Assembly: GCA_016931155.1 (NCBI GenBank) | Contig: JAFGFJ010000002.1 | Coordinates: 385-64,384 of the forward strand | Source of the DNA: Candidatus Dojkabacteria bacterium | GTDB lineage: Bacteria; Patescibacteriota; Dojkabacteria; B142; JAFGFJ01 | Length of the DNA stretch: 64,000 nucleotides | Reading direction: 5' to 3' | Part shown: piece after piece, positions 9,149-59,313 of the stretch | Position numbering within the stretch: the stretch's first letter is position 1 | How the letters are laid out: every line of letters begins with the position of its first letter | Position numbers and translations under genes: made by a program | Notes under the pieces: generated by a model | What the model was told of the DNA's origin: nothing | The model's input: only the letters and a program-made list of their open reading frames with translations | The model's database searches: none

Positions 9149-9273
9149 CTTTGATTTGCTTATTCCGCAATGCATATTGACGACCGTTGTCTTTTCTTCA
9201 TACAAATTTTCTGACTTTAACGATTTTTGATCTACAGATCCGATTTTTACACCAACTTCTAAAATTATGATTA

Positions 9274-10848: not shown

Positions 10849-10965
10849 CAAAACCCCAATAGTGCTACCCGGTGGACACATTCAAAATTATTCTATATAA
10901 AAATAATTTTGGTATTTTGAATTCACAAATAGAAATCCTACTAAAAATGAGCTAAAATACGCTCA

Positions 10966-11532
10966 ATGATACAAAAAACATTACGAGATAAACTTATAAA
11001 GGAATCGAGATATATAATGAGTCAAGATAAAATGTATCATGATTTTGCACATGCATTTTCTGTTTATAAAAATGCACAAATACTATTAGAAAAATTAGGA
11101 GGAGATGAAATAATTATACTAACATCTGCTTTATTTCATGACATCGCACGTGATCAGGATAACCATGAAAAAATTGGTGCTCGCATGCTTGAAGATATTT
11201 TAAGTAACATCAAGGAATTCCCTAAGAGTAAAATTAAGGTCACGTGCAAAGCTGTCGAGAGGCATGAGAAGGGACAAATTACTCATGAAGAAAAAATTCT
11301 TTCAGATGCGGATAAGATGGATGCCTTCAACGAACTCGGCGTTGCGAGAGGTTTAATGATGGCAGCAAAGCGAGGTCCAACACTACATGAATCAATTAGT
11401 TCTTATCTGCAACTTTGTAGGGAAAAATGGTATAAAAACATGCATTTTGATATCTCAAGAGAATTGATAGCAGAGGACAAACAGAGGACCGAAAAATTGC
11501 TCGATGAGATGCTAGACAAATACAGTACTTAA
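10966..11532 (+). CDS. HD-domain phosphohydrolase superfamily protein
   Basis: H...HD (FAHAFSV; LFHDIARD) and a downstream D (SDADKMD), the typical HD metal-ligand arrangement. 188 aa. Confidence 0.6.
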   Translation: MIQKTLRDKLIKESRYIMSQDKMYHDFAHAFSVYKNAQILLEKLGGDEIIILTSALFHDIARDQDNHEKIGARMLEDILSNIKEFPKSKIKVTCKAVERHEKGQITHEEKILSDADKMDAFNELGVARGLMMAAKRGPTLHESISSYLQLCREKWYKNMHFDISRELIAEDKQRTEKLLDEMLDKYST

Positions 11533-37940: not shown

Positions 37941-38216
37941 ATGACTGCCTTACTGGAGAAAAAGATTGAACAACTTCGAAAACTTCTAGTAATAAACAGG
38001 ATAAGAATCCTCGAGCTTCTTTATCAAGGAGATACTTGTGTGTGCAAAATGGTTGACAGGCTTAAATTGAAGCACAGCCTTATATCTCATCACTTAAAAA
38101 TTCTAGCAAGAATGGGTCACATCAAAAGCAGTAAGAATGGTCAACATAGGATTTACAACCTGGCTAATTCAAAAAGAAAGCTGACTGCGGGACTTCTAGA
38201 GTTTATTAAAAAGTAA
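37941..38216 (+). CDS. ArsR/SmtB-family transcriptional regulator
   Basis: RIRILELLYQGDTCVCKMVDRLKLKHSLISHHLKILARMGHI has the ArsR wHTH and a metal-site-like CVC. Confidence 0.7.
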   Translation: MTALLEKKIEQLRKLLVINRIRILELLYQGDTCVCKMVDRLKLKHSLISHHLKILARMGHIKSSKNGQHRIYNLANSKRKLTAGLLEFIKK

Positions 38217-38242
38217 CTTATTTTATTTTTTACTCAACAAAA

Positions 38243-39262
38243 ATGAGCAAAAAAGTACCATTAATAATTGGATTCCTTGTTGGACTAGGAATCCTTTTGA
38301 CAGCCGGATTCTTTCTTCTCCGTCAATCCGAATTTGCCTTGATTGACGAATTAATCGGCGGCAAAACCTCTCAAGAAAACGAAGAGAAGAAGGTCGAGCC
38401 GGGAGTCGGAACAAAGTCTATGATGATCTTGATTGAGTACAAAGATACGGTTGGTCTCGTGAATTTTGCAAACGAGATGAAATCACGTGATATAAGCGGT
38501 CTTTTACTGGTAAGTCCTGATTTTGTAGAAAAGAATTGCGAGGCAGTAAAGGAAGTTATCAAATATGATATAGAAATAATCGGATCAAATCCAAAAGGTG
38601 TTTTTTGGGATGTACCTTATGAAGAGCAATACACAATTATTTCCGACATGAAGAAAAGGATTGAAACCTGCACGGGAGAACCCCTTAGAATTGTCGGGTC
38701 TATGTATATGGCTTCAGATGAAAATACTGTTAAGGCTGCTCAGGAGCTTGGTATACCTTACGTCATCGCCAGAGGCACCACTGATACAAAGGCTACTGTT
38801 TACAAGCCAGAAGAATATGACGTAAAGATCCTGTCAATTTCGAATATCGCTCTTGCAACATTTAAATTTGGCAGTCTTTGCGATTACTCATTCTATGAAA
38901 GATCCGGCACTCCTCAAGATATGCTTGATGAACTTGGTAGAGCATACGAACCAATGACTGAAAAAGAAATTGAGTGGTCTGGAAAGTTTCATCGGGTAAC
39001 ACCTACTACTCACACAAACATCGGCGGGTATCTCAAGCCCTGGATGGATATGTGGATAGAATTCTGGGATACAAACAAAACTGAGTGGGTAGGACTTGAC
39101 GAGTTTATGGAGGAAATAGATTGGAACCTCCCAATGTGGCAGATTCCAACCAACAGAAATGCTCCCTACACTCCGGAAAAGATTCGACCACTTATGCCTT
39201 ATGACGAAATCGAGAAGGTCGAGAACCCTTGTCGTGTAGAAGACATAGGCAAAGAGGACTAA
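38243..39262 (+). CDS. Hypothetical membrane-anchored extracytoplasmic protein
   Basis: N-terminal TM anchor and a ~300-aa domain with no recognised motif. Confidence 0.4.
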   Translation: MSKKVPLIIGFLVGLGILLTAGFFLLRQSEFALIDELIGGKTSQENEEKKVEPGVGTKSMMILIEYKDTVGLVNFANEMKSRDISGLLLVSPDFVEKNCEAVKEVIKYDIEIIGSNPKGVFWDVPYEEQYTIISDMKKRIETCTGEPLRIVGSMYMASDENTVKAAQELGIPYVIARGTTDTKATVYKPEEYDVKILSISNIALATFKFGSLCDYSFYERSGTPQDMLDELGRAYEPMTEKEIEWSGKFHRVTPTTHTNIGGYLKPWMDMWIEFWDTNKTEWVGLDEFMEEIDWNLPMWQIPTNRNAPYTPEKIRPLMPYDEIEKVENPCRVEDIGKED

Positions 39263-39269
39263 TAAAGAA

Positions 39270-39716
39270 GTGAGCACTAATTACGAAGTTATGAAAAAGA
39301 TCTATTTCGTAATAATTACTATACTGCTTTTGGGGATAATTGGAGTAGGAACTATCCTCTACTTCAACTACAGAAATGCTGAGAAGGCAAAAAATCCCCA
39401 AAGCAGTGACTATATCGAGTACAACACACCCAACAAAACTCAAACGAGAAAATTAGTTGTTTTCCACAATGGTGCAGGTCCAATGTGTCTTGAAGCCCTA
39501 GAGTTTTTCGACCAAAACGGAATTGTTTATGAAGAACATCTCACATATGACGAAGATTTCTCGGAAGAACTGGCAATATACAGATCATCAACTGACATAA
39601 GCGAAGGAGTTTCAACAACCTATGGATACTACCCTTATATTTTTGTAGGGGGAAAAGCATTTTCCGGATTTAATGATTGGATAGGGAAGGAGATTATGAG
39701 ATTGGCTTTCGACTGA
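39270..39716 (+). CDS. Membrane-anchored thioredoxin-fold (glutaredoxin-like) protein
   Basis: N-terminal TM helix. KLVVFHNGAGPMCLEALEFFDQNGIVYEEH resembles a glutaredoxin-like beta-alpha-beta unit with a single Cys. Confidence 0.4.
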   Translation: MSTNYEVMKKIYFVIITILLLGIIGVGTILYFNYRNAEKAKNPQSSDYIEYNTPNKTQTRKLVVFHNGAGPMCLEALEFFDQNGIVYEEHLTYDEDFSEELAIYRSSTDISEGVSTTYGYYPYIFVGGKAFSGFNDWIGKEIMRLAFD

Positions 39717-39805
39717 CAGAATTAAAGATTAGAATTTTTTGTAGATCAGATCATTCAAAACAATGGTTCTTTGGGACGTTATCACCTTTGGGATTCTTAC
39801 AGGTT

Positions 39806-39905
39806 GGTTGGGGGAACTGGACAAGATTCGAACCTTTTTTCTTATCAAATCCCCTTGTTACTATCAGTATCCCAGACGTTTCCTTCAATTGGCAGGAGAA
39901 TTTTA
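39806..39905. repeat. Family-A repeat unit, copy A1. It starts with an imperfect copy of the tRNA-Gln 3' end (TGGGGGA...GATTCGAACC).
   Basis: TTGGGGGAACTGGACAAGATTCGAACCTTTTTTCT...ATCCC...CCAGACGTTTCCTTCAATTGGCAGGAGAAT. About 70% identical to copy A3 at 41926-42030. The core matches the tRNA-Gln T-arm and acceptor (TTGGGGGACCAGGATTCGAACC at 43984-44006). Confidence 0.7.
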
Positions 39906-40178
39906 ATTCTAAATTATTAAAGTTCTCATATGCTTAAATTTTCATGCACAGAAGTAATAATTTTCAAGTTATTGAATTTTAGATATAAACAGTACACGAA
40001 TTCATCAATAAACCACTATTTGATAGTCCTTTCAACTGTTCCTACTGTTTATACCATAAATAAAATGAAGAATTGCTTGTTTGATGGTGTAATTCGAGAT
40101 TTTAGGGGGAGTTGTATAAGACTCGAACTTAAGTTGAGAAATGTGACTTTCTAGACGAAAACTCGTAATGTAATTAAT

Positions 40179-40658
40179 ATGAAAAAGGAATTATCAAAGC
40201 TTGTTTTATTTGTACCATTAATACTTCTAGGTCTTTGGACGGTCATCTTTATTATTCCATACTACAACTATAGCTTACGCTTAGTATTAATACTTGGACA
40301 TCCGTTTTTGCTTTTCTTTGTACTTTTATCATCTCTTGGATATTTTCTGTTTGCCATAATTAAAAAGAAATTGTATTTATTTGTAATTTCTGTTTGTACA
40401 CTTTTGAGCTTGATAGCTGTTTGGTTTTTCCCTGCATCTGAAGTTAGACAAAATGTTACACAAAGAGTCATAAACGGATATTATTGTTCAAAAGCAGAAA
40501 TTTCAAACCGGGATGTAATTCTTGGTGGTATAACTGTTTCAGTATCAGCAGATCGTGAAGAATCACTTGTTTTTATAAATGAGTCCCACTGTTTGATGAC
40601 AGTTTGTGCAGAAGAGTTGTATTACTGTAATGAAGAAAGACCTATAATTCTCGATTAG
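40179..40658 (+). CDS. Hypothetical small membrane protein (island cargo)
   Basis: Three hydrophobic helices and a Cys-containing C-terminal region. No motif recognised. Confidence 0.4.
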   Translation: MKKELSKLVLFVPLILLGLWTVIFIIPYYNYSLRLVLILGHPFLLFFVLLSSLGYFLFAIIKKKLYLFVISVCTLLSLIAVWFFPASEVRQNVTQRVINGYYCSKAEISNRDVILGGITVSVSADREESLVFINESHCLMTVCAEELYYCNEERPIILD

Positions 40659-40728
40659 TAATTTCATTAAGATCGCTCCTAGAGTCCTACTTTAATATTC
40701 TTCTATCATTTTGCTGCTTATAACAGTA

Positions 40729-40905
40729 ACTGTACAAGATTCGAACCCACTCAACTTTTGCCTTAATCACGTGGCTCGAACCAAATTTGACTTTTCAAAT
40801 ATTGAGGGATCTGGACAACTGGTTAACTTTTTCCACTTCCATCCATTTACAATAATACGCCTACCGACGTTATCTTTTAATTGGAGAGATGATCTTAATC
40901 AGAAA
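40729..40905. repeat. Copy A2 of the GATTCGAACC core (ACAAGATTCGAACCCACTC), a family-B repeat (GTGGCTCGAACCAAATTTGAC..TTTCAAATAT) and a family-A tail (GACGTTATCTTTTAATTGGAGAGATGATCTTAATC)
   Basis: The core at 40735-40748 is identical to A1's core. The segment at 40776-40810 is ~80% identical to 43913-43948. The tail at 40866-40900 matches the A1 tail at 39870-39905. Confidence 0.6.
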
Positions 40906-41079
40906 TTATTTACAGTTAAGACACATTTCGATAATTAGTATTTAATATTAAAGTATTCTAGAGCTGATATGCCTTTTCGAAATTTTATTTAACTGAATTC
41001 TCGAAAAAGCTTGTTAACTGCGTAAAGAATATTTTTAAAAATCAAATTTCCGTCTAATTTCATTTTGGGGAGAGCTGGC

Positions 41080-41100
41080 ATTGCTCGAACCTTAGGTTTT
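41080..41100. repeat. Family-B core (GCTCGAACCTT...TCAAAAT) at the 3' end of the minus-strand gene 41105..41884
   Basis: GCATTGCTCGAACCTTAGGTTTTATTATCAAAAT shares CTCGAACC...TCAAA with the other B copies. Confidence 0.4.
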
Positions 41101-41104
41101 ATTA

Positions 41105-41884
41105 TCAAAATCGGATCTGATACATTTTTTGATTCTTATCCCAATAAGCTTCAATTCCATATTTTTTTAATTCTGCAATATGACTACTTACCCATCCATT
41201 CGATTCACCTGATGGTTCTTTGTTTCCATTTGGCTCGTTAATTAAAATAAGTTCACTTTTATCCCAACTATTTAATTCAACAAGTATTGTTTCAATTTCT
41301 TTTATGACCAAAGGTTCATCTATACTGCTACAATTTAATTTAACACCGTTAAAAGCATCTTTAGCACACAGAATGTGAAACGAAGAATCACTAACTGCCT
41401 CTATATTAACTAGTTGTATAATACTTGCATCAGGATTGATATGGTAATGGATTGTTAAAGTGTCTGAATTCAACTCTATGAAGTTTATTCCATTTACTAC
41501 ACTATATTTTTCAATTATTTTATCTGAATTTAAAGATACTAATAATTTACACTTAGTGTCAAAAACATAAATTTTTGAATCTTTTAAAAGATAGGTCTGG
41601 AAAGTATCTTTTACTGAGGGATAGCCTTCAATTACCAGATACTTTTCGTTACTAATTGAATTGGTGACTATAAGACCAGAAGGAACGGTGTTCGCACACT
41701 CATTAATAAACTTTGTGTTCCTAGATTGAGATATATTCTCATTTTCAAAGCTGTTTTGTTTGAAACAAATAAGAATTGCTGATAAAACAAGAAAAATAAA
41801 TATAATAGCTACAATCAGAATTGTTTTGATTTTTGTGATTATTATTTGCATATGATAAAAATCACTACTTAACACTCGAACCAC
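41105..41884 (-). CDS. Hypothetical secreted/membrane-anchored protein (island cargo), bracketed by family-B repeat cores
   Basis: N-terminal signal anchor (KTILIVAIIFIFLVLSAILICF). No recognised domain. Confidence 0.4.
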   Translation of the reverse strand: MVRVLSSDFYHMQIIITKIKTILIVAIIFIFLVLSAILICFKQNSFENENISQSRNTKFINECANTVPSGLIVTNSISNEKYLVIEGYPSVKDTFQTYLLKDSKIYVFDTKCKLLVSLNSDKIIEKYSVVNGINFIELNSDTLTIHYHINPDASIIQLVNIEAVSDSSFHILCAKDAFNGVKLNCSSIDEPLVIKEIETILVELNSWDKSELILINEPNGNKEPSGESNGWVSSHIAELKKYGIEAYWDKNQKMYQIRF

Positions 41885-42030
41885 TGTGTCATATGGTAGA
41901 CCATTGTGTGTCTGTACAATTCCACTGGTTGCGGGAATTGGACAAGGTTCGAACTTTTTTCTATGACCATCCCACTGCTGAGATCATTATACCAACGGTT
42001 TCGTTTGATTGGGGGAAGAGTTATGAGAAG
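41862..42030. repeat. Family-B core (ACACTCGAACCACTGTG) followed by family-A copy A3 (GGGAATTGGACAAGGTTCGAACTTTTTTCT...)
   Basis: The A3 copy at 41926-42030 aligns with A1 over about 100 nt. The track ORFs 39677..39937 and 41906..42112 both translate this repeat (GNWTRFE in both). Confidence 0.65.
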
Positions 42031-42240
42031 AAGTTATTGTTTTGTGAGTATGAGTAGAATGATGGCTTTCAAGGTCAGTTTTACTCTCTACTTGAACGAT
42101 CCGATTGCATAAATTTCACATATTACTAACAAACACTGTCGGAATAGGATTTATTATCCTGAGGTCTCTTCTACGGTATCAGAATGGCTGTTGGTCAGTG
42201 TTAATTGATAGTCAAGGGTGTCTTGTACAAGGTTCGAACC

Positions 42241-42702
42241 TCAGGATGAGATTTGTGTACAGTGCGATAAATATTCCTTGATAGGCCAAGGTACTTTTAC
42301 CGTTGTTGACCCCACCAGTAAAGTATGGTCTCCAAATACTGATTTTGGACAACCATATACTATGTTTTTCGATCTATGAAGGTATTGATTACTATTCGAG
42401 AAATCTTCTTCAAGAAAAACAAACTCAATCCTGCGACCGTCACATTTGGCATTTATTTGAATCTTATAGTCCCGATCATCAATTTTGGTGTAGTTCTTTT
42501 TTTCCAAGATGTTCTTTAGTTTCTGCTTTTCCGTTTTCAGTATATGAAAGTCAATGTCATGATTAACCTCATCGTCATCAATTATTCCAGAGTCAATTTG
42601 TTCAAGTAAGCCTCTCCCCACCCAGTAGTCTATATTAGAGTCAGATAGTAAGCTAATAATTTCATGAAAACTCTCTCTGATATGTGTTATTTGAATTGTC
42701 AT
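42241..42702 (-). CDS. Hypothetical small protein, weakly nucleotidyltransferase-like. Possible partner of the downstream HEPN-like gene.
   Basis: GRG...DSGIIDDDEVNHDIDFHIL loosely resembles the Pol-beta NTase G[GS]...DxD motif. A GGTTCGAACC core lies immediately 3' of its stop. Confidence 0.25.
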   Translation of the reverse strand: MTIQITHIRESFHEIISLLSDSNIDYWVGRGLLEQIDSGIIDDDEVNHDIDFHILKTEKQKLKNILEKKNYTKIDDRDYKIQINAKCDGRRIEFVFLEEDFSNSNQYLHRSKNIVYGCPKSVFGDHTLLVGSTTVKVPWPIKEYLSHCTQISS

Positions 42703-42746
42703 TATTATTAAACTTTATAATTATATTCGATTGTAGGAAAATTGAT

Positions 42747-43874
42747 TTATAGAACTTCTAAAACGCTGAAGATACAGTTTAGAACTGATTGAAGTATTTC
42801 TGTTTGCTTACGCCACATAATTTGTTGACTTGCTATCGTATGAAACGCATAGTTGCGCAATCCATAAGATAAGGTAAAATCTCCAAGGGTAGACTTTTGG
42901 CCTATACAATCTTGAATCCATTTTTCAAAATCGTTATCTCTATCTATTTGTATTTGATTTAAATTTGGAGTTCCTAATTTGTTGTCACTGCTATATTTTT
43001 CGAACAAATTTCCAAATCTATCTAATCTCGGATATTTTTTCTTTAATAGATCTTCTATAGTAATAAGTAATCCGCCGATTACTTGTGCATAAATAAGCGG
43101 TGCAATAACATTCTCACCTTTATTGGATTTCTGAATTCTTCTCAAGCGCCACAATCTAAGCAAAGAGTAAACAAAAAAGTATTTGATCTCGAGATATTCA
43201 TCTAATCTTTGGTCTAGAAACTTCATTCTCAAATCAGAATACTCAAGACTTCCGCTTCTCTCCGTTTGATAGTGCTGCTTGTACTTACCATTTTCATTTC
43301 CCTTTCCATCCAATCTGTCACGAAGAAAACCCAGCATATACTTGGTGTGATCTGAAATATATTGTTTTTCATCTGGATTTAATGAAAGGAAAAGATTTGC
43401 GGGTAAGTCATGCCATTTCTTATGATGGTTGCGATCTTCGGTTAATGCAAGATGCATAAAAATTGATCCTGCATCAACATCAAACTGACTTATACTAGCA
43501 ACAGCAATGAAATAATAAGGAGTTCCAAGATGAAGTTCAAGTTTGTAATCATTCCTCCATTTCTCTGCCCAGATGATTAATCTCTGCCAAAGCTCATATG
43601 CATATTTATTCTTTCTGTTTTTAATCAAATTTTGACTTACTGGTGTGAAGTTGCTGAAAATTGCATCACTGGTGGATGTTAATTCATCTTCAGCGATATC
43701 ACTTAAAGTTTTACCAATCTTGTCAAGGAAACGATCTTCAACATTAATTATCTTGTCCCTAAAATAAGACTGATAGAATTTTGTAAATTCGTCAGTCAAA
43801 TCCTCATTGATATAATCAAACTCTTCAATTGCGAAATAGCCTGTAAGGGGGATTTTTAAAGTAATTTTTTTCAT
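42747..43874 (-). CDS. Hypothetical 375-aa protein with a C-terminal Rx4H motif. Possible HEPN/Abi-like defence protein.
   Basis: C-terminal GLRNYAFHT (R-x4-H), as in HEPN/Abi_2-type proteins. It sits in the tRNA-Gln-adjacent island next to a small upstream partner ORF. Confidence 0.3.
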   Translation of the reverse strand: MKKITLKIPLTGYFAIEEFDYINEDLTDEFTKFYQSYFRDKIINVEDRFLDKIGKTLSDIAEDELTSTSDAIFSNFTPVSQNLIKNRKNKYAYELWQRLIIWAEKWRNDYKLELHLGTPYYFIAVASISQFDVDAGSIFMHLALTEDRNHHKKWHDLPANLFLSLNPDEKQYISDHTKYMLGFLRDRLDGKGNENGKYKQHYQTERSGSLEYSDLRMKFLDQRLDEYLEIKYFFVYSLLRLWRLRRIQKSNKGENVIAPLIYAQVIGGLLITIEDLLKKKYPRLDRFGNLFEKYSSDNKLGTPNLNQIQIDRDNDFEKWIQDCIGQKSTLGDFTLSYGLRNYAFHTIASQQIMWRKQTEILQSVLNCIFSVLEVL

Positions 43875-43912
43875 GTCTGTTACAAAACGATAATATGGCA
43901 GTTTAGCCTATT

Positions 43913-43948
43913 TTTATGTGGCTCGAACCACTTTTTGCGTTTCAAAAT
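43913..43948. repeat. Family-B repeat copy adjacent to tRNA-Gln
   Basis: ATGTGGCTCGAACCACTTTTTGCGTTTCAAAATAT versus ACGTGGCTCGAACCAAATTTGACTTTTCAAATAT at 40776. Confidence 0.6.
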
Positions 43949-43983
43949 ATGGCGTATAGACTATAGCGTACACGCCTAGTCAT

Positions 43984-44054
43984 TTGGGGGACCAGGATTC
44001 GAACCTGAATTCACGGCTTCAAAGGCCGCTGTCCTACCATTAGACGATCCCCCA
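43984..44054 (-). tRNA. tRNA-Gln (anticodon TTG)
   Basis: Reverse complement TGGGGGA-TC-GTC-TAATGGTAG-GAC-A-GCGGC-CTTTGAA-GCCGT-GAAT-TCAGG-TTCGAAT-CCTGG-TCCCCCA-A folds as a cloverleaf (3-bp D-stem typical of Gln/Glu; anticodon loop CTTTGAA). Confidence 0.8.
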
Positions 44055-44288
44055 ATTCTACAAACCCAGACTGAGGGGAATTATACCATCTCACACCTGT
44101 CTTGCTAAACTTTTCATTTTGCTCTTCAGTTTGTACACAATTTTATACAGACAATTTACTCGATTATTCCCTGATCTTCAAAACCGTCTCTATCATTCTT
44201 TGAAGTAAATTTAATAGCTTCAAAATCTTTTCTCCCCCTTGAAAAACTTTCTTTCAGATGACATTATTAAAAAGCTATTGCCTTTGCC

Positions 44289-48256: not shown

Positions 48257-51200
48257 TTGGGAATCCCGGGAGAAACACCACAGAAAAAAGAAAAAAAAGG
48301 AAAGAGGCAGAGTGCTTTCATGAGAGCGCTTAGCAGAATATTGAATATTTCCGCCGGAGAAACGAGAAAGACCAGAGAAGAGCTGGCAAAAGCTCTTACT
48401 GAGGGAAAAGACATAGAAAGAATCTATAAAGATAAACTAAAAGTCAAAGAAGCGGACAAAGGGAAAGAAAAACTCCCCCCAATCAGGGAAAGAATAAGGA
48501 AAGCCAGTGTTGATGCCGCAGTACGTCTGCTTCGAATAGATCCCAGACAAAAAATCGATGCTGTCAAATTCAAGGAGGAGATGGCCAGACAAAATATCGA
48601 CAGATCAACAGAGGGAGTACCTCAGGGAGCGTTTAGAAAAGCCCTCGCTGAAAAAGCACGGAAAACAGAGGCTGAAATCAGACAAGTAGAAAGAGCCGAG
48701 ATGGTTAAGGCCATAATAGTTAGAGAGAGCGGAAATGAAAAAGTCGACTTTGGAATAAGAGCAAACATTGAAGGTAGAAATATCGTAGTAAACCTCGATC
48801 AGAAGAAAGGAGATGATGAGCTTGATATAATAGAGAATGAGGAGAAAGAATACATCGATAAAAATCCAGATATTGAGAATAACGATAAAGAAGAAAGAAA
48901 GTCCAGGGTAAACAAAGAAATCGATCTTCTTAGAGAAATAAGGAAATTGAGGAAAGAAATAAAAAGCCCGGACAGCCGTGAAGTTGAAGCAATAATCGAA
49001 AAAGTTGAAGATTTTTTGAAGGAATCAAAGGAAGCGGGTCAAGAAACAGTGCTTCTCGAGGAGATGATAGATACTTTCGATCTTGATGAAATAACCAGAA
49101 AACAGGTGCATATTTCGGTTATTTCAAAAGTAGAGGGACTACAAAGAAATGCTTCTTCGAAAGAATACGAAAAAATACAGCGACAAACTGAACGCAAACC
49201 ACTTCACACACAACTTCTCGAACTATCCGCAGACAAGCTTGTTGCGAAACACAATCAAGCATGTAGCTTCTATATAGATGACTACGAAGATACATCAGCA
49301 GAAGGATCATCGAAAGCAGGGGAGGAAATAATTCCTGAGGAAAAGCGCAGGGAAAAGGACACAAAGCTTAGAGGAATTGTAAACACAGCTATCGACTCTT
49401 ACAATCAAACTCTACTTGAAGAAAATAACACTGGGAGAAAATTCGAACCTGCAGACCTTTATGAAAAAAATACAATCCTGCAGATCCCGGGCGGAGTAGC
49501 TATAGTTACATCTGATGCCGGGCAGTTTGCACGGCTGGTGAATATGGGTGAAGATCACGAGGCTATAGCAAAAAACCTTGAAGAACAACCGGTTGCGGGA
49601 GCCTATCTTAAAGGAAGGCTCGCAAACTCAATAAAAGAGAAAGGTTATGAAGGAGACGTGATCATAATCTACGCAAAAGAAGCTGAGGACGAGGATGGTG
49701 GAACGAAGGGTATAGAAAATAAATGGTATGAGCGGGACTTAAAAGACAGCGAAACCTCAAAACTTATATATCACGAAATAGAGCACTTGCTTCAGCAGAG
49801 AAATCTGGAAGCTATAGAAGACTTGCATTCGGGATCAGATGCAGTTTTGGAAGAATACTTTGAAAACAGCAATCAAGCAAGACACAAAAACCTCTTTGCA
49901 ATTTACAAAGACATAATAACGAACAGAAAGAATAGCAAATATTTCAAACAAGCACCTGATGATCCAATTTTTAAAATACTTGCGGAAGGGAATATAACAA
50001 AGGAGGCAGGGATACACCAGCTGGTATCGCTGTATTACGGCTCAAAAGGAATCGAGTTTGACGCTCTGACATCAGTAGAAAGACGTGGACGCATATTCGA
50101 GGAAGCTCCAGGCTGGAAAGGCGGAAAAATTGATGCAGGCAGGGTCTTTGAACTGGCCGCACTACCGGATAATCAAAGAAAAATCATGACACAGGAAGGT
50201 GAGACAAGTATTGAAGTTGACCCATGGGAGAATATAGCCAAAGAAAATCCATTACTACAAGCAGTATATTTCAGAGAAATCACTTCTGATAAAGCAAAAA
50301 TAATCTATAGTGATTTTGACAGTCCTGAAAAGCTTATGATGATCAAGGACGAGATTGATAGCTTGATGAAGACCAATAAACTTACTTCCATCTCACAGCT
50401 GATCCACAAAATCAGTGCCGGAGAAGTCACCCTCAGTGAAAACTCTGAACTCAATAAACTTGAGCTGATAAAAATGCTCAAGGTCAAAGGAAATGATCTT
50501 AAGTTTGTTAAGAGAGCCTCAGAAATTTTAGGCAGTTTCTTTAAAGATACTGAAACAAGGGACGCTCTATTTGAATACTCTGCAATACTGACCGGAGGAA
50601 AAATGGCCTTTGGAGAAGGGCTTATGAATCCCGAAGACCAACATAATCAACCGCTGATTGCTCTTTACAAAAGTGTTCTAGGCGAAAAAAGCAATGGTCC
50701 CGGGGATCTTAGCCTGAGAAGGCTTTACCTCCAGACACCCGAAGGAGAAATCCCGGAAGAGCATATAAAGCTTTTTAAATTTATGATTGCGGTAGATATG
50801 ATTCTACAGAGATCAGGAAATCTTAGTACTGAGGAATTAGACGCAAACAGAAGGCACATTGCATCCATGATTTACACTGATTACAACAAGGGGACAGATT
50901 ACCTTCTTCAAAGGCTCACAGACCTTACAGAATTGACTGGATCCCTCAGCAAAGAAGAGCTCAAAAAAATCGAAGAAGGCCTGCAAAGTATCATACAAAA
51001 TAAATCAAAGGCAGATCCCGGTTTTCTTAAAAAAATACTCTACGGGGATGAGACGAAATATCTAATACCATACAATCCCGATGTCGACTTTTCAGTTTTT
51101 CCGACCGAAAGGTACATAAAAGATATTTTGGGAGCAGGACATCCCGCCGCGGCTATTGACATAGTAGACGCTCTGCAGAGAGTATATGCCATGCCATTTG

Positions 51201-53149
51201 CCATGAAGAGGCACAGAGATATCCAAGCTCAAGTAGAGGAGCTTAGGGAGGCTCGTGCACCTGACTATCTCATAAAAGCTGTTCAGATGAGAAGTCCTTA
51301 CAACAGAGGTGGTGAGGAGTCGAGCATAGACTCCAACTGGTATCAAAAAATTGTCGAGACATTGCCACTTATAGGAGGACTTGTAACACCAGGCAATGTA
51401 GAGTGGGCAAAGTCGAGCCTTTTCACTGAAGGACATCCCTTGTACGGAAGAAGTATGAAAAGAGTTCCAATTATTGGGCCGATTCTTGACCGCCATTTTC
51501 CGGTAGTACTCAAAACTGGACTTGGAGGAGAGTTTGATGTCGCAAAAAGAGATTTTACAAAAAAATGGGGACATGACGTTAAGGGTTTGGCATTTCCTTC
51601 AGATCAGCTTATAACCGGCGATAAAAATGTAATGGGAATTATGAATGGAATACAGGCCGGCCTACAGGGACTCGGAATGGATGATCTCGAACGGATAGCC
51701 TTTTTGAAAGCAATGCCGATGTTTAGAACTATTCAAATGGGTGCTGCCAACCCACCTCAGATAATCCCTTCACAGGCAGAACTCGAGGAGGAAGGAGTTC
51801 AAATATGGGCAGACAGAACTGGTTCAGGTGCTGTCCACAAATGGAAAACTCACTTTGAAAATGAGATCGTATGGGGAAGTCACTGGGATGGCACAAAAGT
51901 AACAATTGATGATGAGATTGCGAAAGCTGAAAGTAAGCTTGCCAATATGAAAGGATTAGGCAAACTTGGTACAAAAGCTTTGTCCATCATGGACAAGATC
52001 AAAGGTCTGGACGGAGCACAAAAAGAAGCGACAAAAATGAAGGAAATATATAATCTCATGGCCGCACAGCCTCCCGGAGGATATTCAATGCGCCACCTGG
52101 TCGAGATGGCAAGAAAGGCTCATGAAGGCGGCTTCTGGGATCCGGATCCTGGTAAACCAAGAAAATACTATTTCAAAGTAGGCATACCAGATCCAAATAA
52201 CCCGGATGGGGAACCCATTTTGTTTGACTTGAAGGATGTGAACACATTTGTACAAAGATACAATAGAGCTTATGCAAAGGAAATATTTGCTTCAGGAAAA
52301 GATCCAAAAACAGGCGAAGACCTTGAAGCGGCAAGTCCGGATATCCAAAGTTTACGCGTGCAACTTGAAACTGCTGAGATGAATCGAGATAGAAATCAAG
52401 CTCAACTGAAAAACCCTGCGATTTCTGATAATGACAGGAAAAAGCTGGAGGATGAAATTGGTATCCTCGATTTCCACATTGAAAATTTCAAAAAAGAGAT
52501 TGAGGAAAAATCCCACACATATAAATTTCTCAAGGGATTCGGAGAAGGTTATGATGAAAAAATGTTTTTTGATATAGTATGGGGTGAAGTCGATGGCATG
52601 AAAGAGAATATGGAAAAGGGAGCACAATACTATGCCGATTATCAATTCAGAATTGCCCAGATTGCAATGATGGAAAGACGCACCTTTCATGCATCAAATT
52701 TCTTCAACAAACTAGATAGAATACTGAACAATATTGGTCACTGGAGTCTTGTAGCAGGACTTGCTATTACAGTTGCGACTGGAGCACCAGTTGGAATAAC
52801 AATACTGCTTGGCGGCTCTGCTCTGATACTCGCAAATACGGCATTTGTAAACAAATATTCTCAGCTCTGGCTCGGCAGAAGAATAAGAGCAATTGAAACC
52901 AGAGAAAAACTGGATTCTATGCTTCAAATGTACGAAGAAGTACAATCAGGAAAATTGCTCTCACCAGCAACTCTTTCTATGCTTGAAAGACAAAAGGCAA
53001 CTATTGAATTCATGACTGAAAATATCATGAGAGTAACAGCAAAGGATTCTGTGAAACTGCCTGCCGATAGATTATTCTTTGCTGTAGGTGGCGGTCTCTG
53101 GAAAGCATTTGATGAAATGGGAGTAAACATGCTTGCAGGAAAGATCTAA
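48257..53149 (+). CDS. Giant (1630 aa) Lys/Glu-rich, predominantly helical protein with a C-terminal Gly-zipper TM hairpin. No family recognised.
   Basis: One long ORF. No signal peptide. Highly charged N-terminal ~1500 aa. C-terminal hydrophobic segment HWSLVAGLAITVATGAPVGITILLGGSALILANTAFV followed by a ~90-aa tail. Confidence 0.6.
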   Translation: MGIPGETPQKKEKKGKRQSAFMRALSRILNISAGETRKTREELAKALTEGKDIERIYKDKLKVKEADKGKEKLPPIRERIRKASVDAAVRLLRIDPRQKIDAVKFKEEMARQNIDRSTEGVPQGAFRKALAEKARKTEAEIRQVERAEMVKAIIVRESGNEKVDFGIRANIEGRNIVVNLDQKKGDDELDIIENEEKEYIDKNPDIENNDKEERKSRVNKEIDLLREIRKLRKEIKSPDSREVEAIIEKVEDFLKESKEAGQETVLLEEMIDTFDLDEITRKQVHISVISKVEGLQRNASSKEYEKIQRQTERKPLHTQLLELSADKLVAKHNQACSFYIDDYEDTSAEGSSKAGEEIIPEEKRREKDTKLRGIVNTAIDSYNQTLLEENNTGRKFEPADLYEKNTILQIPGGVAIVTSDAGQFARLVNMGEDHEAIAKNLEEQPVAGAYLKGRLANSIKEKGYEGDVIIIYAKEAEDEDGGTKGIENKWYERDLKDSETSKLIYHEIEHLLQQRNLEAIEDLHSGSDAVLEEYFENSNQARHKNLFAIYKDIITNRKNSKYFKQAPDDPIFKILAEGNITKEAGIHQLVSLYYGSKGIEFDALTSVERRGRIFEEAPGWKGGKIDAGRVFELAALPDNQRKIMTQEGETSIEVDPWENIAKENPLLQAVYFREITSDKAKIIYSDFDSPEKLMMIKDEIDSLMKTNKLTSISQLIHKISAGEVTLSENSELNKLELIKMLKVKGNDLKFVKRASEILGSFFKDTETRDALFEYSAILTGGKMAFGEGLMNPEDQHNQPLIALYKSVLGEKSNGPGDLSLRRLYLQTPEGEIPEEHIKLFKFMIAVDMILQRSGNLSTEELDANRRHIASMIYTDYNKGTDYLLQRLTDLTELTGSLSKEELKKIEEGLQSIIQNKSKADPGFLKKILYGDETKYLIPYNPDVDFSVFPTERYIKDILGAGHPAAAIDIVDALQRVYAMPFAMKRHRDIQAQVEELREARAPDYLIKAVQMRSPYNRGGEESSIDSNWYQKIVETLPLIGGLVTPGNVEWAKSSLFTEGHPLYGRSMKRVPIIGPILDRHFPVVLKTGLGGEFDVAKRDFTKKWGHDVKGLAFPSDQLITGDKNVMGIMNGIQAGLQGLGMDDLERIAFLKAMPMFRTIQMGAANPPQIIPSQAELEEEGVQIWADRTGSGAVHKWKTHFENEIVWGSHWDGTKVTIDDEIAKAESKLANMKGLGKLGTKALSIMDKIKGLDGAQKEATKMKEIYNLMAAQPPGGYSMRHLVEMARKAHEGGFWDPDPGKPRKYYFKVGIPDPNNPDGEPILFDLKDVNTFVQRYNRAYAKEIFASGKDPKTGEDLEAASPDIQSLRVQLETAEMNRDRNQAQLKNPAISDNDRKKLEDEIGILDFHIENFKKEIEEKSHTYKFLKGFGEGYDEKMFFDIVWGEVDGMKENMEKGAQYYADYQFRIAQIAMMERRTFHASNFFNKLDRILNNIGHWSLVAGLAITVATGAPVGITILLGGSALILANTAFVNKYSQLWLGRRIRAIETREKLDSMLQMYEEVQSGKLLSPATLSMLERQKATIEFMTENIMRVTAKDSVKLPADRLFFAVGGGLWKAFDEMGVNMLAGKI

Positions 53150-54552: not shown

Positions 54553-56733
54553 TTATGTTAGTTGTCCTATACCGTTCAGTGCATCAGTTAATTCTTTTGT
54601 TCCAGATATCCCAAACCTCTTTTCCCAGATTTTTACCACCTCTGGTATCATCTCAGGATCCAATCCATTTTTAGCAGCATATCTCTCAGCAAAGAATTTT
54701 GCTCTTTCTCCTGCTTGCGAAATTGGTATATTCTGTAACTCTGATTTAAATTTCAATATATCTCTTTCTTTTTCCAGATAATCAACTTTAACTTTTGCAT
54801 AATCCGCTTTACCACCAAAGCCAAGATATTTAATGCCAGCTACTCCACCACTTACAGCCCCCACACCTGCACCTACTCCAAGAACTCCTGTCAAAACAGG
54901 ACTTGCCGCTGTAAAGTATGCAATACCAGCACCAACACCACCACCCAATAGAAGCAAACTAGGGACACCAAAATACTTTGCAAGTGCCACAGCTCGCTTC
55001 ATTCGTAAATTGAATTTTTCTGCTTCAGCAGCTTTCACTCTTGCTTCTGCAATTTCCTCAGCAAGACCCCCACTACCGTTTGCTCCAAGCATCTTCTTTG
55101 TAAGTTCAAACTTTTTTTCCAGAGCTGCTTTCACTTCTGGTGAGCCCTGGTAGTTATCTATCTCCTCTTGCAGCTTTGAAACAACATCTGCCATATTCGC
55201 TTGCTGATCTTCTTCTGCCTGAATACTCATTTGAACAGCTTCTCCATGCTTATCTTTAATAAACTCTCTCTCTCTTTCAGTTAACGTAGGATATGCGGCA
55301 AGTTCATTGTCGATATTAAAAGTCCTGCCTACAGGAGTACATCCAGAATCAAACTTTCTCAATAACTCATCAATTATTTTCTTAATGCCTGCGTCTGTTT
55401 TGATTCTGGTCTCCTCCTCCTGGTACTTCTGTCTTGCCTGTCTTTTAAGCTCCTCTCCTTCCTGAAAAGATAATTCTCTATTCGTTACCCTTGTATCAAC
55501 TACAGTGTCATAAACGTCTAGTTCATAGAATCCTCTTCTTAGATACTCATTCATAGCAGCAGTAGTATCTCCCTTTCCTTCCTCTCTTCTTACTTTTTCC
55601 CTTTCTTCTCTCCCTGTAATTAAGGTTCTTCTTGCCGCAATTTCAGAGTTTAGTGCAGAAAATTCACTATCAGTAATATCCCTGTTTCCATGTGCAGTTA
55701 GCACCTCATCTTCTAACCTATTAAGCTCTTGTTCGTTGGAATTTGCCGGATCAGCCAATCCCTGTCTTATTCTTCGAGCCTCAGGAGATACTGTTGTCGC
55801 TCTTTCAGAATCTATCAGATCCACTATTCTCTTCCAGTCCGAGTCATTTATCTCACCATCTTTGAGAGCTCCATCAGCCCTCGATTTTGCAGTATCATAG
55901 TCAGGGTTTGGAACAAGTATAAATCCATTTATTATGCCATTTACAATATTTTTTCTTTGTGTATCAGCAAACTCTTTCTGCTTCCTTGTTTTTATACCCT
56001 CAACATCTTGCCTAGCCTGTCGAACTTGAGCTCTTTCTTCAGATATTACACTTTGATCAACGTATTGGTTTATAGCTGCTACTCTCTCTATTTCATCATC
56101 TGCACTGTCTAATATATCAAGAGCCGAGGTAACATCAACATTTGTAACAGGGATAATACTCTCAGCTGTTGATTTAGCTCTACTAACAAGATTACTTACA
56201 CTAGTCGGAAGCTTTGCTATCTCTTGATTCGCCTTTTCTTTTTTATCCTCTTCTTCCTTCCTTTGTTTCCTCTCATCTGCCTCCCTTTTCTCACTTGCAA
56301 TCTTAGCTCTAAGTTCTCTTATATCTTGATCTGCTTCGCTGAGCTTTTTTCCTCTACCTGTTTCCCCACTAATCATCTTATTCGCCGCATTAAACCTACT
56401 ATCATTATTTGTTTCTTGAAGCTTGTTTCCAACCTGAACTGATAAACTGTCAAAGGCGTTTTTTCTTTCCGTTCTAGCTTTCTCCTCAGCCTGTGATGCT
56501 CTTCTATCTGCGTCAAGCTGTTTCTTTCTACCTTCCTCCTCACTTTTCCTCTCTTTAGCAGCAGCTATAACACTAATTACTTCCTGAGCAGCTTCTGCTG
56601 TACCCGCTGCAATAGCTATTCTATATATAGACCTGTATTCAGTGGGTATCTTAGAAATCTCTGATCGCATTGCTGTCAACCGTTCTTGCGATAGAGGAGT
56701 AGAAGTTTTTGCTTGACTATCAGGATTACTCAT
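54553..56733 (-). CDS. 726-aa charged helical protein with a C-terminal Gly-zipper TM region
   Basis: Arg/Glu/Lys-rich N-terminal 550 aa. Hydrophobic region LLLLGGGVGAGIAYFTAASPVLTGVLGVGAGVGAVSGGVAGI followed by ~90 aa. Architecture parallels the 1630-aa and 1034-aa proteins. Confidence 0.55.
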   Translation of the reverse strand: MSNPDSQAKTSTPLSQERLTAMRSEISKIPTEYRSIYRIAIAAGTAEAAQEVISVIAAAKERKSEEEGRKKQLDADRRASQAEEKARTERKNAFDSLSVQVGNKLQETNNDSRFNAANKMISGETGRGKKLSEADQDIRELRAKIASEKREADERKQRKEEEDKKEKANQEIAKLPTSVSNLVSRAKSTAESIIPVTNVDVTSALDILDSADDEIERVAAINQYVDQSVISEERAQVRQARQDVEGIKTRKQKEFADTQRKNIVNGIINGFILVPNPDYDTAKSRADGALKDGEINDSDWKRIVDLIDSERATTVSPEARRIRQGLADPANSNEQELNRLEDEVLTAHGNRDITDSEFSALNSEIAARRTLITGREEREKVRREEGKGDTTAAMNEYLRRGFYELDVYDTVVDTRVTNRELSFQEGEELKRQARQKYQEEETRIKTDAGIKKIIDELLRKFDSGCTPVGRTFNIDNELAAYPTLTEREREFIKDKHGEAVQMSIQAEEDQQANMADVVSKLQEEIDNYQGSPEVKAALEKKFELTKKMLGANGSGGLAEEIAEARVKAAEAEKFNLRMKRAVALAKYFGVPSLLLLGGGVGAGIAYFTAASPVLTGVLGVGAGVGAVSGGVAGIKYLGFGGKADYAKVKVDYLEKERDILKFKSELQNIPISQAGERAKFFAERYAAKNGLDPEMIPEVVKIWEKRFGISGTKELTDALNGIGQLT

Positions 56734-57076
56734 TAGGTGGGTCTTCGCTAAAATGTTTCTTTATCTCTTCATTCATACTATTTTTAAGCTCCTCGTTAGT
56801 TGCAAGTTCACTGAAAGTTTTTTCTGTTACTTTTCCATTCTCCACACCTTCATCTAAACCTATTACAACATCCAAAATCTGCTTATCATCCAGACCTTTT
56901 CTCCTCAATTCTTCTACAAACCATTTCAAAAAATCATGGGACAGTTTCTTACCCTCAGTCAAAGCATTCTCCGGCTTAGTTACGTCTCCAATTTTCCCCT
57001 CAATTATTTGCTTCAATAAAGATGCTGGGTCAGAACTCTGTACAGTTTGTTTTGTTAGATTAGTCTGATTACCCAT
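56726..57076 (-). CDS. Hypothetical small acidic protein. Overlaps the downstream gene start by 8 nt.
   Basis: 116 aa. Translational coupling. Confidence 0.4.
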   Translation of the reverse strand: MGNQTNLTKQTVQSSDPASLLKQIIEGKIGDVTKPENALTEGKKLSHDFLKWFVEELRRKGLDDKQILDVVIGLDEGVENGKVTEKTFSELATNEELKNSMNEEIKKHFSEDPPNE

Positions 57077-57104
57077 CCTTTAAAATTTCTAGAAATATAC
57101 TAAT

Positions 57105-57665
57105 TCAACTCAATCCTTTCTCAAACTCTATAGTAGTCTGGATTATATTTCTGGCTTCGTCAAGACGCCCTTCTTTCAGGAGCTTACTCACCACTTTTTC
57201 AACTTCCTCCTTGACCCTCTTCTCATACTCAATCATAATTGGCACGACCACTTCAGAAAGCTCACGAAACTGATCATCAAGACTTGGGATCACTCTCATC
57301 AAACTCTCATATGAAATGTTTGAAGGAAGCTTCTGAAGCACCAGATCAGCAATCTTTTTCGCCCGCTCATCATCCATCTCGTCCTGCGACACCTTTTCCT
57401 TGATAAGATCGACAATGGACTGCATCACAACGTTTCGAACCTTGGCCGTATCCACTTCATCCTTGATAAGACCCGCTGGATCAAACTTCTCAAGTCTTTT
57501 TCCAAATTCCATCACCTTTTTCTGCTCGTCATTTTTTGCCACGTTAGAAGAATTTGCTGTATCTGCTTTTTGAGTATTTGTATTTGTATTTGTACTCGTA
57601 TTTGTACTCGTATTTGTACTCGTATTTGTACTTATATTTGTGTGTGCCACTTGTGCATCTGTCAT
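57105..57665 (-). CDS. Hypothetical protein with an N-terminal (TNTS)n tandem-repeat tract
   Basis: NISTNTSTNTSTNTSTNTNTNT, encoded by 12-nt tandem repeats at 57586-57645, then a helical acidic domain. Confidence 0.45.
   Translation of the reverse strand: MTDAQVAHTNISTNTSTNTSTNTSTNTNTNTQKADTANSSNVAKNDEQKKVMEFGKRLEKFDPAGLIKDEVDTAKVRNVVMQSIVDLIKEKVSQDEMDDERAKKIADLVLQKLPSNISYESLMRVIPSLDDQFRELSEVVVPIMIEYEKRVKEEVEKVVSKLLKEGRLDEARNIIQTTIEFEKGLS
57586..57645. repeat. Tandem 12-nt repeat (about five copies of GTATTTGTACTC) inside the 57105..57665 CDS
   Basis: gtatttgtactcgtatttgtactcgtatttgtactcgtatttgta... Confidence 0.85.
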
Positions 57666-57873
57666 GGACGCTCTGTTAATCCGCTAAAAAATATATAAGT
57701 AAATATATACAAAATAATATACAAGATTTAGAAATTTGTTGCACACAATTGCGCTCAATTTCCTTGCATCCCGCAAGCTTTCTTCCTATACTGATATTAT
57801 TCCAATTTGTTCCGGGTCGGTTTACTGACTCAACTGGCAATTGGTAATTATTAATTTTTAAATCCTGCCTGCT

Positions 57874-59298: not shown

Positions 59299-59313
59299 TC
59301 CGTAACTCAAAAG

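Follow-up and report, generated by a model that had tools for sequence, protein, structure and literature searches.

A 64,000-nucleotide stretch of a Candidatus Dojkabacteria genome (contig JAFGFJ010000002.1 of assembly GCA_016931155.1; hereafter the window) carries, on the 3′ side of an intact tRNA-Gln(UUG) gene, an island in which copies of the tRNA-Gln 3′ end delimit small sets of genes. We consider it likely, at a probability of about 0.68, that the 4.2 kb between the gene for the membrane protein p148 and tRNA-Gln(UUG) consist of three small integrative cassettes, non-autonomous and all from one element family, arranged in tandem. To our knowledge, few mobile elements have been described in bacteria of the Candidate Phyla Radiation (CPR), and their gene gain and loss are poorly understood. 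Here, very small cassettes that belong to one coherent family, with ends that are conserved and cargo that is not related, appear to be stacked at tRNA-Gln in two genomes, with no local integrase in either.

Copies of the tRNA-Gln 3′ end and their conserved arms

ARAGORN (43983..44055, minus strand) and Rfam (RF00005, 64.5 bits at 43984..44054, a match that covers the full model) both recognize the tRNA-Gln(UUG) gene, and a preliminary description of this DNA, made from the sequence alone, had already located it intact on the minus strand at 43984–44054. The gene would be both the integration target and the regenerated attL side of the array. Lying on the minus strand upstream of a gene for a DUF6938 protein, it forms a syntenic anchor that is found in four relatives. 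Its terminal 14 nucleotides (nt), TTGGGGGACCAGGA (43984..43997), consist of the 3′ strand of the acceptor stem and the 3′ strand of the T-stem; judging from a breakpoint found in the comparison with a second genome (see below), this segment, hereafter O, is the probable crossover region. Copies of O lie at 39808–39821, 40802–40815, and 41929–41942, all in the same orientation as tRNA-Gln. The locus therefore shows displaced, co-oriented tRNA 3′ fragments beyond an intact tRNA gene, which is one of the signatures by which tRNA-linked islands are recognized.

The repeats are far more frequent than expected. The core ACAAGRTTCGAAC has exactly four copies in the 64 kb, all on the plus strand (at 39821, 40734, 41942, and 42227), and the T-arm cores listed in the preliminary description at 39826, 40739, 41944, and 42228 were right to within 1–3 nt. 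With up to two mismatches, ACAAGRTTCGAAC has twelve matches where 3.25 are expected, a number reached by none of 100 shuffled sequences. The shorter motif [TC]TCGAAC occurs eleven times on the plus strand of 39827–43998, against 0.56 occurrences expected from the remaining window (Poisson P = 2.7e-11); one of the eleven, at 42999, falls within the gene for a 375-amino-acid (aa) protein and is probably there by chance. An nhmmer profile built from six A-type cores found, as its best matches in the 64 kb outside the training set, the two real tRNA 3′ ends, and it found no further copy elsewhere in the window.

The copies can also be traced to tRNA-Gln by their letters. The outermost one, A1, retains the acceptor sequence TGGGGGA at 39809–39815, as had been noticed before, and has TTGGGGGA and GATTCGAACCT in common with the resident tRNA-Gln. 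Its 11-mer TGGTTGGGGGA equals the acceptor, discriminator, and encoded CCA at the 3′ end of the tRNA-Gln of a relative (L003), and TTGCGGGA, in the copy A3, equals the acceptor of the tRNA-Gln genes of three related loci (L005–L007) and of the second genome.

Each displaced O copy opens a conserved arm of about 100 nt (family A). A1 (39805..39918), with the O copy TTGGGGGAACTGGA (39808–39821), would be the outermost, attR-like junction and begins the first unit, E1; A2 (40799..40910), with the decayed O copy TTGAGGGATCTGGA (40802–40815) and a degenerated T-loop-like core, begins E2; and A3 (41926..42038), with its O copy at 41929–41942, lies at the E2/E3 junction and supplies the left arm (P′) of E3. 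A1 and A3 are 69 per cent identical over 114 nt (39805–39918 vs 41926–42038; E = 1e-11), in agreement with the family of about 100 nt that had been recognized at these two places. A2 is a third copy added here; it is 54–58 per cent identical to the other A copies, with z-scores of 10–11 against A1 and A3 when compared with shuffled sequences.

On the other side of the junctions lies a second type of repeat, family B, whose 13-nt core GTGGCTCGAACCA occurs exactly at 40771 and 43918, with 83 per cent identity over 29 nt between B1 (40771–40799) and B4 (43918..43946). B4, 37 nt from the tRNA 3′ end, would be the right arm (P) of E3. B1 and the D core that precedes it (40717–40749) together form the putative right arm (P) of E1 (40717..40799) and, with A2, an attP-like P-O-P′ arrangement. 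The right arm of E2, B3 (41866..41885), is a weak B-type core that overlaps the annotated GTG start of a cargo gene; the B3–A3 segment resembles the B4–tRNA segment with z = 4.9. Four sites had been proposed for family B in the preliminary description: those at 40776 and 43913 have the exact core, that at 41866 is weak, and that at 41080 carries an A-type core instead (A1 vs 41065–41109, z = 6.2).

This last site, C2 (41061..41095), is separated by 14 nt from the 3′ end of the cargo gene of E2, and its similarity to the tRNA 3′ end is equalled or exceeded in 20 of 1000 shuffles. Two further A-type cores had been overlooked: C1 (40099..40133; nhmmer 22.7 bits as a member of the training set), 51 nt upstream of the E1 cargo gene, and C3 (42212..42244; 23.6 bits, likewise a training member), which abuts the stop codon of a 153-aa gene. 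The surroundings of C1 and C3 are alike over 77 nt (42181–42257 vs 40069–40145, z = 9.2).

Read along the plus strand, every unit runs from O and the ~100-nt A arm, past a C core ~285 nt on, through the cargo to a B arm (with or without D) and the next O. E1 (988 nt) leads from the A1 core (39827) over 295 nt to C1 (40122), over 618 nt that contain a 159-aa gene on the plus strand to D (40740), over 35 nt to B1 (40775), and over 40 nt to A2 (~40815). E2 (1133 nt) continues over 269 nt to C2 (41084), over 791 nt that contain a 248-aa gene on the minus strand to B3 (41875), and over 73 nt to A3 (41948). E3 (2050 nt) spans 285 nt to C3 (42233), 1689 nt with the 153-aa and 375-aa genes on the minus strand to B4 (43922), and 76 nt to the T-loop of the tRNA (43998). 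Together the units extend 4.2 kb beyond the tRNA 3′ end. The cores do sit at gene boundaries, as first described: the C3 core reaches to 42239 and is followed by a stop codon from 42241, the gene beside the C2 core (41084) has its end at 41105, and B3 (41875) and B4 (43922) lie just upstream of gene starts.

A B arm is found 40–76 nt to the left of A2, A3, and the tRNA. At A1 there is none, and the conserved p148 gene stands in its place. This asymmetry is expected of a tandem array that consists of attR, attP-like junctions, and attL, and we accordingly read A1 as a putative attR-like end, A2 and A3 as candidate attP-like internal junctions, and the tRNA as the likely attL. Families A and B (with D) are probably the two arms of one attP-like site of ~200–400 nt, comparable to attP sites, which are typically ~250 bp (PMC4383910). 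The repeats of the preliminary description are real, and it is their division into two separate families that does not stand. Since each unit has O copies at both bounds, conserved A and B arms, and cargo alone inside, it is att-flanked and free of genes for recombination or transfer. The G + C content of the island is 32.7 per cent, vs 37.7 per cent in the remaining window.

The conserved right end of the A arm resembles a sigma-70 promoter that faces into the unit (39889–39917, 40883–40911, and 42010–42038): TTGGCA-17-AATTAT in A1, TTGGAG..AATTAT in A2, and TTGGGG..AGTTAT in A3. Only the site in A1 passed the consensus scan.

The same arms at a tRNA-Gln gene of a second genome

A 54-aa open reading frame (ORF) over A3, searched against 1.84 billion representative proteins, has one match, a 42-aa ORF (E = 5.9e-6) on a 1.13-Mb contig of assembly GCA_054922035.1 (locus L046), and this ORF is simply another A arm. 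We compared 20 kb of that genome with the window. In BLASTN searches, A3 matches L046 twice, at 9231–9321 (41929–42019; 94.5 per cent over 91 nt) and at 10047–10122 (41933–42008; 92 per cent over 76 nt), and the D–B1 arm with the start of A2 (40731–40815) matches 10860–10944 (82 per cent over 85 nt, E = 3.7e-18). The D–B arm of L046 directly adjoins the 3′ end of an intact tRNA-Gln(CUG) gene (10931–11001, minus strand), with a spacing (D-35-B-41-tRNA) that mirrors D-35-B1-40-A2 in the window. In both genomes, the functional tRNA end is continuous with island DNA, as when an island regenerates it: the B arm in the window and the D–B arm in L046 adjoin the 3′ end. Direct repeats of the tRNA end, 21 nt long and of the sequence AAT(T/A)TTGCGGGACCAGGATTC, delimit the L046 island; the two copies are 95 per cent identical and 1871 nt apart. 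The cargo of this island is unlike that of the window: a 171-aa protein that contains the motif RNFVEH, and a phosphatase of the PP2C type. Both arms have thus been kept at a second tRNA-Gln gene, with other cargo between them.

The position of the crossover can be read from the alignment of the D–B1–A2 junction of the window with the D–B–tRNA junction of L046. Homology continues through TATTG(A/C)GGGA(T/C)C(T/A)GGA and then ends inside O; past the breakpoint, L046 proceeds into the tRNA T-loop and the window into the A arm. Because homology ends inside O, the crossover probably took place within O, at the acceptor/T-stem junction. Crossovers between T-stem and acceptor form the ‘J’ class of tDNA (tRNA gene) crossover sites described for Islander islands (PMC4383910).

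Immediately before its first A copy, L046 contains a 21-nt inverted repeat, 95 per cent complementary, with a 3-nt loop (GCAAGATGGGGAGAGATATCA / TGATGTCTCTCCCCATCTTGC, 9190–9234). It ends exactly where the A copy starts and could be a terminator or a protein-binding site.

A model of serial cassette integration and its difficulties

In the model that we favour, a cassette would exist as a circle with an attP of ~200–400 nt that is composed of a right arm (D–)B, the 14-nt O, identical to the last 14 nt of tRNA-Gln, and a left arm A that opens with the pseudo-T-loop CAAGRTTCGAAC. Strand exchange within O would be carried out by a site-specific recombinase of the tyrosine type, whose gene would lie elsewhere in the genome or on a helper element. 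After the exchange, the B arm would deliver a new tRNA 3′ end, so that the tRNA stays intact, and the old O, now joined to the A arm, would be displaced outward. Three such rounds would yield X-O-A..cargo1..B-O-A..cargo2..B-O-A..cargo3..B-O-tRNA, with E1 the oldest unit and the farthest from the tRNA. What we infer are the class of the recombinase, that it acts in trans, the sequence of the insertions, and movement as 1–2-kb cassettes rather than survival as deletion remnants. The preliminary description had likewise proposed serial site-specific integration at the tRNA-Gln 3′ end, and the layout of the array, the arms in L046, the low G + C content, and the unrelated cargo agree with it. It had also taken the repeats for partial att copies, left by the integrations and followed by decay; they do appear to be partial att copies, and random decay fits them less well, as the units have the look of a single family of cassettes that are small by nature and have no integrase, not of random wreckage.

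Several observations weigh against this model. The recombinase itself is hypothetical: Pfam searches of 43 ORFs of the window, those of the island included, found no recombinase or transposase domain, as the preliminary description had stated for the window, and none was found within ±10 kb of the L046 island. Viral, phage, and plasmid collections yielded no autonomous or free element with A or B arms: BLASTN of both islands against the phage and plasmid collections gave no match, a protein-based scan with the 375-aa protein as query found none, and five DNA-pattern scans of viral contigs returned either nothing or 18 chance matches, all coding or unrelated. Neither an empty site nor a relative close enough to show one exactly was found, as searches of genome contigs with the DUF6938 protein and then with its alignment produced nothing. 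In none of ten metagenome relatives is a tRNA-Gln(UUG) gene located downstream of the genes for p148 and its neighbour p339, and the relatives that have tRNA-Gln beside DUF6938 have other genes at the position of the island. The A-type copies carry 5 nt more than a true T-stem/acceptor, which limits their collinearity with the tRNA to the first 14 nt, and the match to the resident tRNA depends on this collinear interpretation. In L046, the second A copy has no D–B arm on its left. The C cores, one ~285 nt into each unit of the window and none in L046, have no explanation in the model; they could be further junctions, which would give gene-less mini-units of ~285 nt, and they could equally be arm-type sites. 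Finally, the 92–94 per cent identity of A arms between the window and L046 is suggestive of recent exchange; it is not proof of recent horizontal transfer, because the relatedness of the two host genomes is not measurable from the available pieces, which have no orthologous genes in common.

The tRNA-Gln 3′ flank differs in all four lineages that share the tRNA-Gln/DUF6938 anchor. One of them, without A and B arms (L005–L007; GCA_011053035.1), has a 16-nt copy of the tRNA-Gln end, TTGCGGGACTAGAATT, 276 nt beyond the tRNA (L005 2821–3169). The tRNA end and this copy bracket a single 74-aa membrane ORF in the manner of a mini-cassette, and the 276-nt span is what the gene-less mini-units considered above for the C cores would resemble in size.

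If the cassettes are truly mobile, attB, attP-like, attL, and attR sequences are available here for direct tests, and the A and D–B arms provide a search key for the missing recombinase and for gene flux in Patescibacteria. If they are mere decay products, the locus is an ordinary tRNA-linked island. A bolder and rather doubtful extension is that Patescibacteria own a dedicated capture system for gene cassettes at tRNA-Gln, in which a single recombinase acting in trans serially inserts and excises integrase-less cassettes of 1–2 kb and exchanges them between lineages. Such cassettes might be defined by an A arm of ~100 nt and a D–B arm of ~85 nt around a 14-nt copy of the tRNA-Gln end, at UUG or CUG genes, and the system may be a functional analogue of integrons that uses a site derived from a tRNA.

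Alternative explanations

A competing account, which we regard as unlikely though by no means negligible, is that the locus is the wreckage of at least three larger, integrase-bearing islands or prophages that inserted at tRNA-Gln and lost most of their DNA by deletion, leaving att remnants and a few genes in units that are 1–2 kb long by accident. Islands linked to tRNA genes usually contain degenerate elements and scattered partial tRNAs (bioRxiv 10.1101/2020.12.28.424599), and the arms are indeed decayed, A1 and A2 being 54–68 per cent identical to other copies and A2 having no TTCGAAC core; in addition, the outer repeat in L046 is a bona fide 21-nt tRNA repeat rather than an A-type one. 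Yet four of the five units in the two genomes have kept both conserved arms, and all five contain one or two intact genes in 0.8–2 kb, for which independent deletions would have had to end at the arms on almost every occasion. There is no fragment of an integrase, and no non-coding gap is long enough to conceal one. Furthermore, the young-looking copies (A3 and those of L046, 92–95 per cent alike) are as integrase-less as the old ones.

The preliminary description had offered, as another possibility, an integron-like cassette array. In that case, the A, C, and B repeats would be attC-like sites that fold as single strands, an integron-type integrase would act on them, and the tRNA end would serve as attI. 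Small single-gene units, conserved boundary sites, a single stacking site, and unrelated cargo with one toxin–antitoxin-like pair are all reminiscent of integrons, but in the strict sense the comparison fails, and we consider this account very improbable. An integrase adjoins the array in neither genome, and no IntI is present. Instead of imperfect palindromes, one finds the tRNA end copied directly, with long asymmetric arms attached. Cores, arms, and junctions, folded as single-stranded DNA or as RNA, do no better than shuffled sequences (z from +0.9 to −1.7), and the consensus fold is weak and has no covariation. The cargo is in mixed orientation (E1 plus, E2 and E3 minus), and many cassettes have upstream room for promoters of their own.

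It is similarly improbable that the repeats are a functional RNA, signal, or protein, be it an intron-containing or split tRNA, minihelices that punctuate a read-through transcript, or a 54-aa protein encoded over A3. On the minus strand, the ends of A1 (...TCCCCCAACCA) and A3 (...TCCCGCAACCA) allow a GGGA/UCCC stem around a T-loop-like GGUUCGAA. The tRNA-Gln gene is preceded by a promoter-like site (TTAGCA-17-TATAAT with TG; 44080..44108, minus strand; a consensus match only), and in the promoter and terminator scan nothing terminator-like separates the tRNA from the first cargo gene. Group I introns are known to interrupt tRNA genes of Patescibacteria (PMC13011429). Nevertheless, one of the refuting outcomes named in the preliminary description did not occur, since none of the units folds or scores as a tRNA or an intron-containing tRNA: ARAGORN and Rfam (E ≤ 10) return the one tRNA gene alone in the region, and group I introns are not among their matches. 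The part of the A arm that lies to the right of the core is unlike the tRNA body (25 of 500 shuffles for A1; not significant for A2 and A3). The A units have minimum free energy z-scores near 0 on either strand, and the consensus folds computed from five copies come to −5 to −7 kcal/mol, with a covariation term that is positive (penalizing) and 0–1 compensatory pairs. As for a protein, the A3 ORF has its one database match, but this sole match is another A arm; mismatches show no preference for a codon position (14/11/10 and 19/10/16), frameshifts interrupt A1 and A2, and the N- and C-termini of the three open copies are not related to one another.

Three related ideas were tried and discarded. 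The plus-strand reading frames of family A look conserved by eye (ELDK[IV]RTFF...IPxVSFxW), and the codon positions, frameshifts, and termini just described rule out a conserved protein. The A units are not full-length tRNA pseudogenes, since the alignment of A1 with the tRNA (z = 4.8) rests on the 3′ end and its remainder is not significant. Family B is not a piece of tRNA-Gln from the T-arm to the anticodon loop, as 84 to 347 of 1000 shuffles score equally high.

That the units are a dispersed repeat of the kind of miniature inverted-repeat transposable elements or repetitive extragenic palindromes, clustered here by chance and unrelated to integration at tRNA-Gln, would suit their being short, non-coding, repeated, and without an enzyme of their own, but is hardly credible, given that the remaining 60 kb of the window (contrary to the many loci that the preliminary description had allowed for) and the 18 kb of L046 outside its island contain no further copy, and that all copies are co-oriented with the tRNA, begin with its terminal 14 nt, and are confined in both genomes to the 3′ side of a tRNA-Gln gene.

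Comparison with known integrative elements

The tandem-cassette reading places the locus among the tDNA-targeting integrative islands, in which newer insertions lie beside the tRNA and internal junctions are in attP configuration (PMC4383910). With islands of the Islander/TIGER type it shares the intact tRNA gene, the displaced co-oriented 3′ fragments, the regenerated tRNA end, and the crossover between T-stem and acceptor; it differs in that its units have no integrase inside or nearby, are 0.8–2 kb long, and carry pseudo-T-arm fragments that are 5 nt longer. Because the Islander filters demand an integrase and a minimum length of 2 kb (PMC4383910), these units would not pass standard island finders.

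Cis-mobilizable elements (CIMEs) are att-flanked, have no genes for recombination or transfer, occur in tandem at one attB, and are thought to be moved by the integrase of a related autonomous element (PMC6323972; PMC5704250). The units of the window resemble the CIMEs that accompany ICEs (integrative and conjugative elements) and IMEs (integrative and mobilizable elements) in Streptococcus in being att-flanked, free of genes for recombination or transfer, and arranged in tandem at one attB. They differ in having no known cognate ICE or IME, only one or two genes per unit, and long conserved arms; conjugation is not known in CPR bacteria, and an origin by deletion from a larger element, as for CIMEs, is not shown for them. 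As the att signature of an island is present and an integrase inside is not, the locus is best filed, as a tDNA-targeting integrative island in tandem array, with CIME-like non-autonomous att-flanked elements. It is an island of a kind already known, and what is unusual are the one or two genes per unit, the CPR host, and the long conserved arms that two genomes, and two tRNA-Gln isoacceptor genes, have in common.

Tycheposons of Prochlorococcus also integrate serially at one tRNA, with partial tRNAs between insertions and older remnants pushed inward, and are elements of 10–20 kb with a tyrosine (rarely serine) recombinase and a replication module, akin to phage-inducible chromosomal islands (bioRxiv 10.1101/2020.12.28.424599). 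Streamlined genomes, tRNA hot spots, partial tRNA copies between integrations, scattered remnants, and niche or defence cargo are common to both. None of the tycheposon modules (recombinase, primase, helicase, and polymerase) was found among the domains of the island.

The analogy with integron cassettes holds loosely for the array. Tiny units, most of them with a single gene, that have conserved sites at their boundaries and cargo of unrelated kinds accumulate in both cases at one chromosomal point through an enzyme that the units do not encode; unlike integrons, neither array has an IntI, attI, or Pc next to it, and copies of a tRNA end with asymmetric arms and mixed orientation take the place of attC-type hairpins.

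Cargo genes

The cargo proteins of the island are mutually unrelated. E1 encodes a 159-aa membrane protein (40179..40658, plus strand), an ORF that is also called as a gene in an overlapping contig (L045) and has no family match; its orientation is opposite to that of the E2 and E3 cargo. The E2 protein (41105..41851, minus strand) is a membrane-anchored ORFan of 248 aa (259 aa from the GTG start) without a family match, whose sole match among 5.8 billion proteins is itself.

E3 carries two genes on the minus strand. The first encodes a 375-aa all-helical, HEPN-like protein (42747..43874), identical to the NCBI hypothetical protein JW796_00575, and the second a 153-aa protein of nucleotidyltransferase (NTase) fold (42241..42702; Pfam PF10706, 23.9 bits at a cut-off of 21, E = 4.9e-5). 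HEPN domains are marked by an Rx4-6H motif and a four-helix fold. The motif G-L-R-N-x3-H of the 375-aa protein is invariant in its nine homologs, and a Foldseek search against the PDB gave nothing significant. From the motif and the neighbouring NTase gene, a HEPN/MNT-like pair is plausible but unproven, because the pairing with an NTase is not kept in the loci of homologs (P0008, P0013, and P0014). The pair also differs from HEPN-MNT (type VII) toxin–antitoxin systems in that the HEPN-like protein has 375 rather than ~130 aa and that its gene precedes the NTase gene instead of following it.

The 171-aa protein of L046 (9505–10020), which has no Pfam match, contains RKLRNFVEH, an Rx4H HEPN-type motif as in the 375-aa protein, and HEPN-like cargo may be recurrent in the cassette family, to judge by these motifs. 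Homologs of the 375-aa protein occupy variable places, and in four other loci (L027–L030) they adjoin an MmeI-like restriction–modification gene. In GCA_041643215.1 (L031 9687–9893), a tRNA-Glu(ttc) gene is followed by a 40-nt, 90 per cent identical copy of its own 3′ half, 131 nt on (start to start), and a homolog of the 375-aa protein begins ~110 nt beyond this partial copy, ~240 nt downstream of tRNA-Glu. This cargo family is thus also located beside another tRNA, with a partial tRNA copy, in another genome.

Within the 3′ end of the 153-aa gene, the palindromic hairpin CCTTGATAGGCCAAGG (42276–42291) is terminator-like on both strands.

Genomic setting

The left chromosomal boundary of the island is the p148 gene (39291..39716, plus strand), the last gene of a conserved cluster (37941–39716) that encodes an ArsR-family regulator, the 339-aa protein p339, which has no family, and p148, a 148-aa membrane-anchored glutaredoxin-like protein. 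The adjacency of p339 and p148 is kept in nine of ten metagenome relatives (among them L035–L041 and L044), with p339 identities of 47–68 per cent; p148 has no match in the metagenome relatives L042 and L043, and ArsR was detected beside the pair in two relatives (L041 and L044). An exact look-up of p148 from its GTG start returned no record.

The genes around the island are ordinary bacterial housekeeping genes (TruB, FtsW, Pth, GlmS, MiaB, TypA, and an ECF sigma factor). Only two tRNA genes in the window are recognized, by ARAGORN and Rfam alike: tRNA-Asn (9076–9149, plus strand) and tRNA-Gln(UUG) (43983–44055, minus strand). The scan for promoters and terminators showed no enrichment (27 seen vs 20.1 ± 4.3 expected).

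Independent Logan contigs from the run SRR13394437 cover the window in tiles that are 100 per cent identical to it (L045, 37751–40776; L001, 40758–44042; L002, 44027–55521). They break at the B1 core (40758–40776) and inside tRNA-Gln (44027–44042), both of which are array junctions. As the overlaps span only 16–19 nt, the breaks are probably coverage gaps.

Eight larger ORFs outside the island have no Pfam matches. A run of large ORFs, of 726, 474, and 426 aa (54553–60594), has none, and these are typical unexplored CPR genes. They follow the gene for a 1630-aa protein (48257–53149), and the succession of GH18, peptidyl-prolyl isomerase, and this giant protein is kept in the relative L003.

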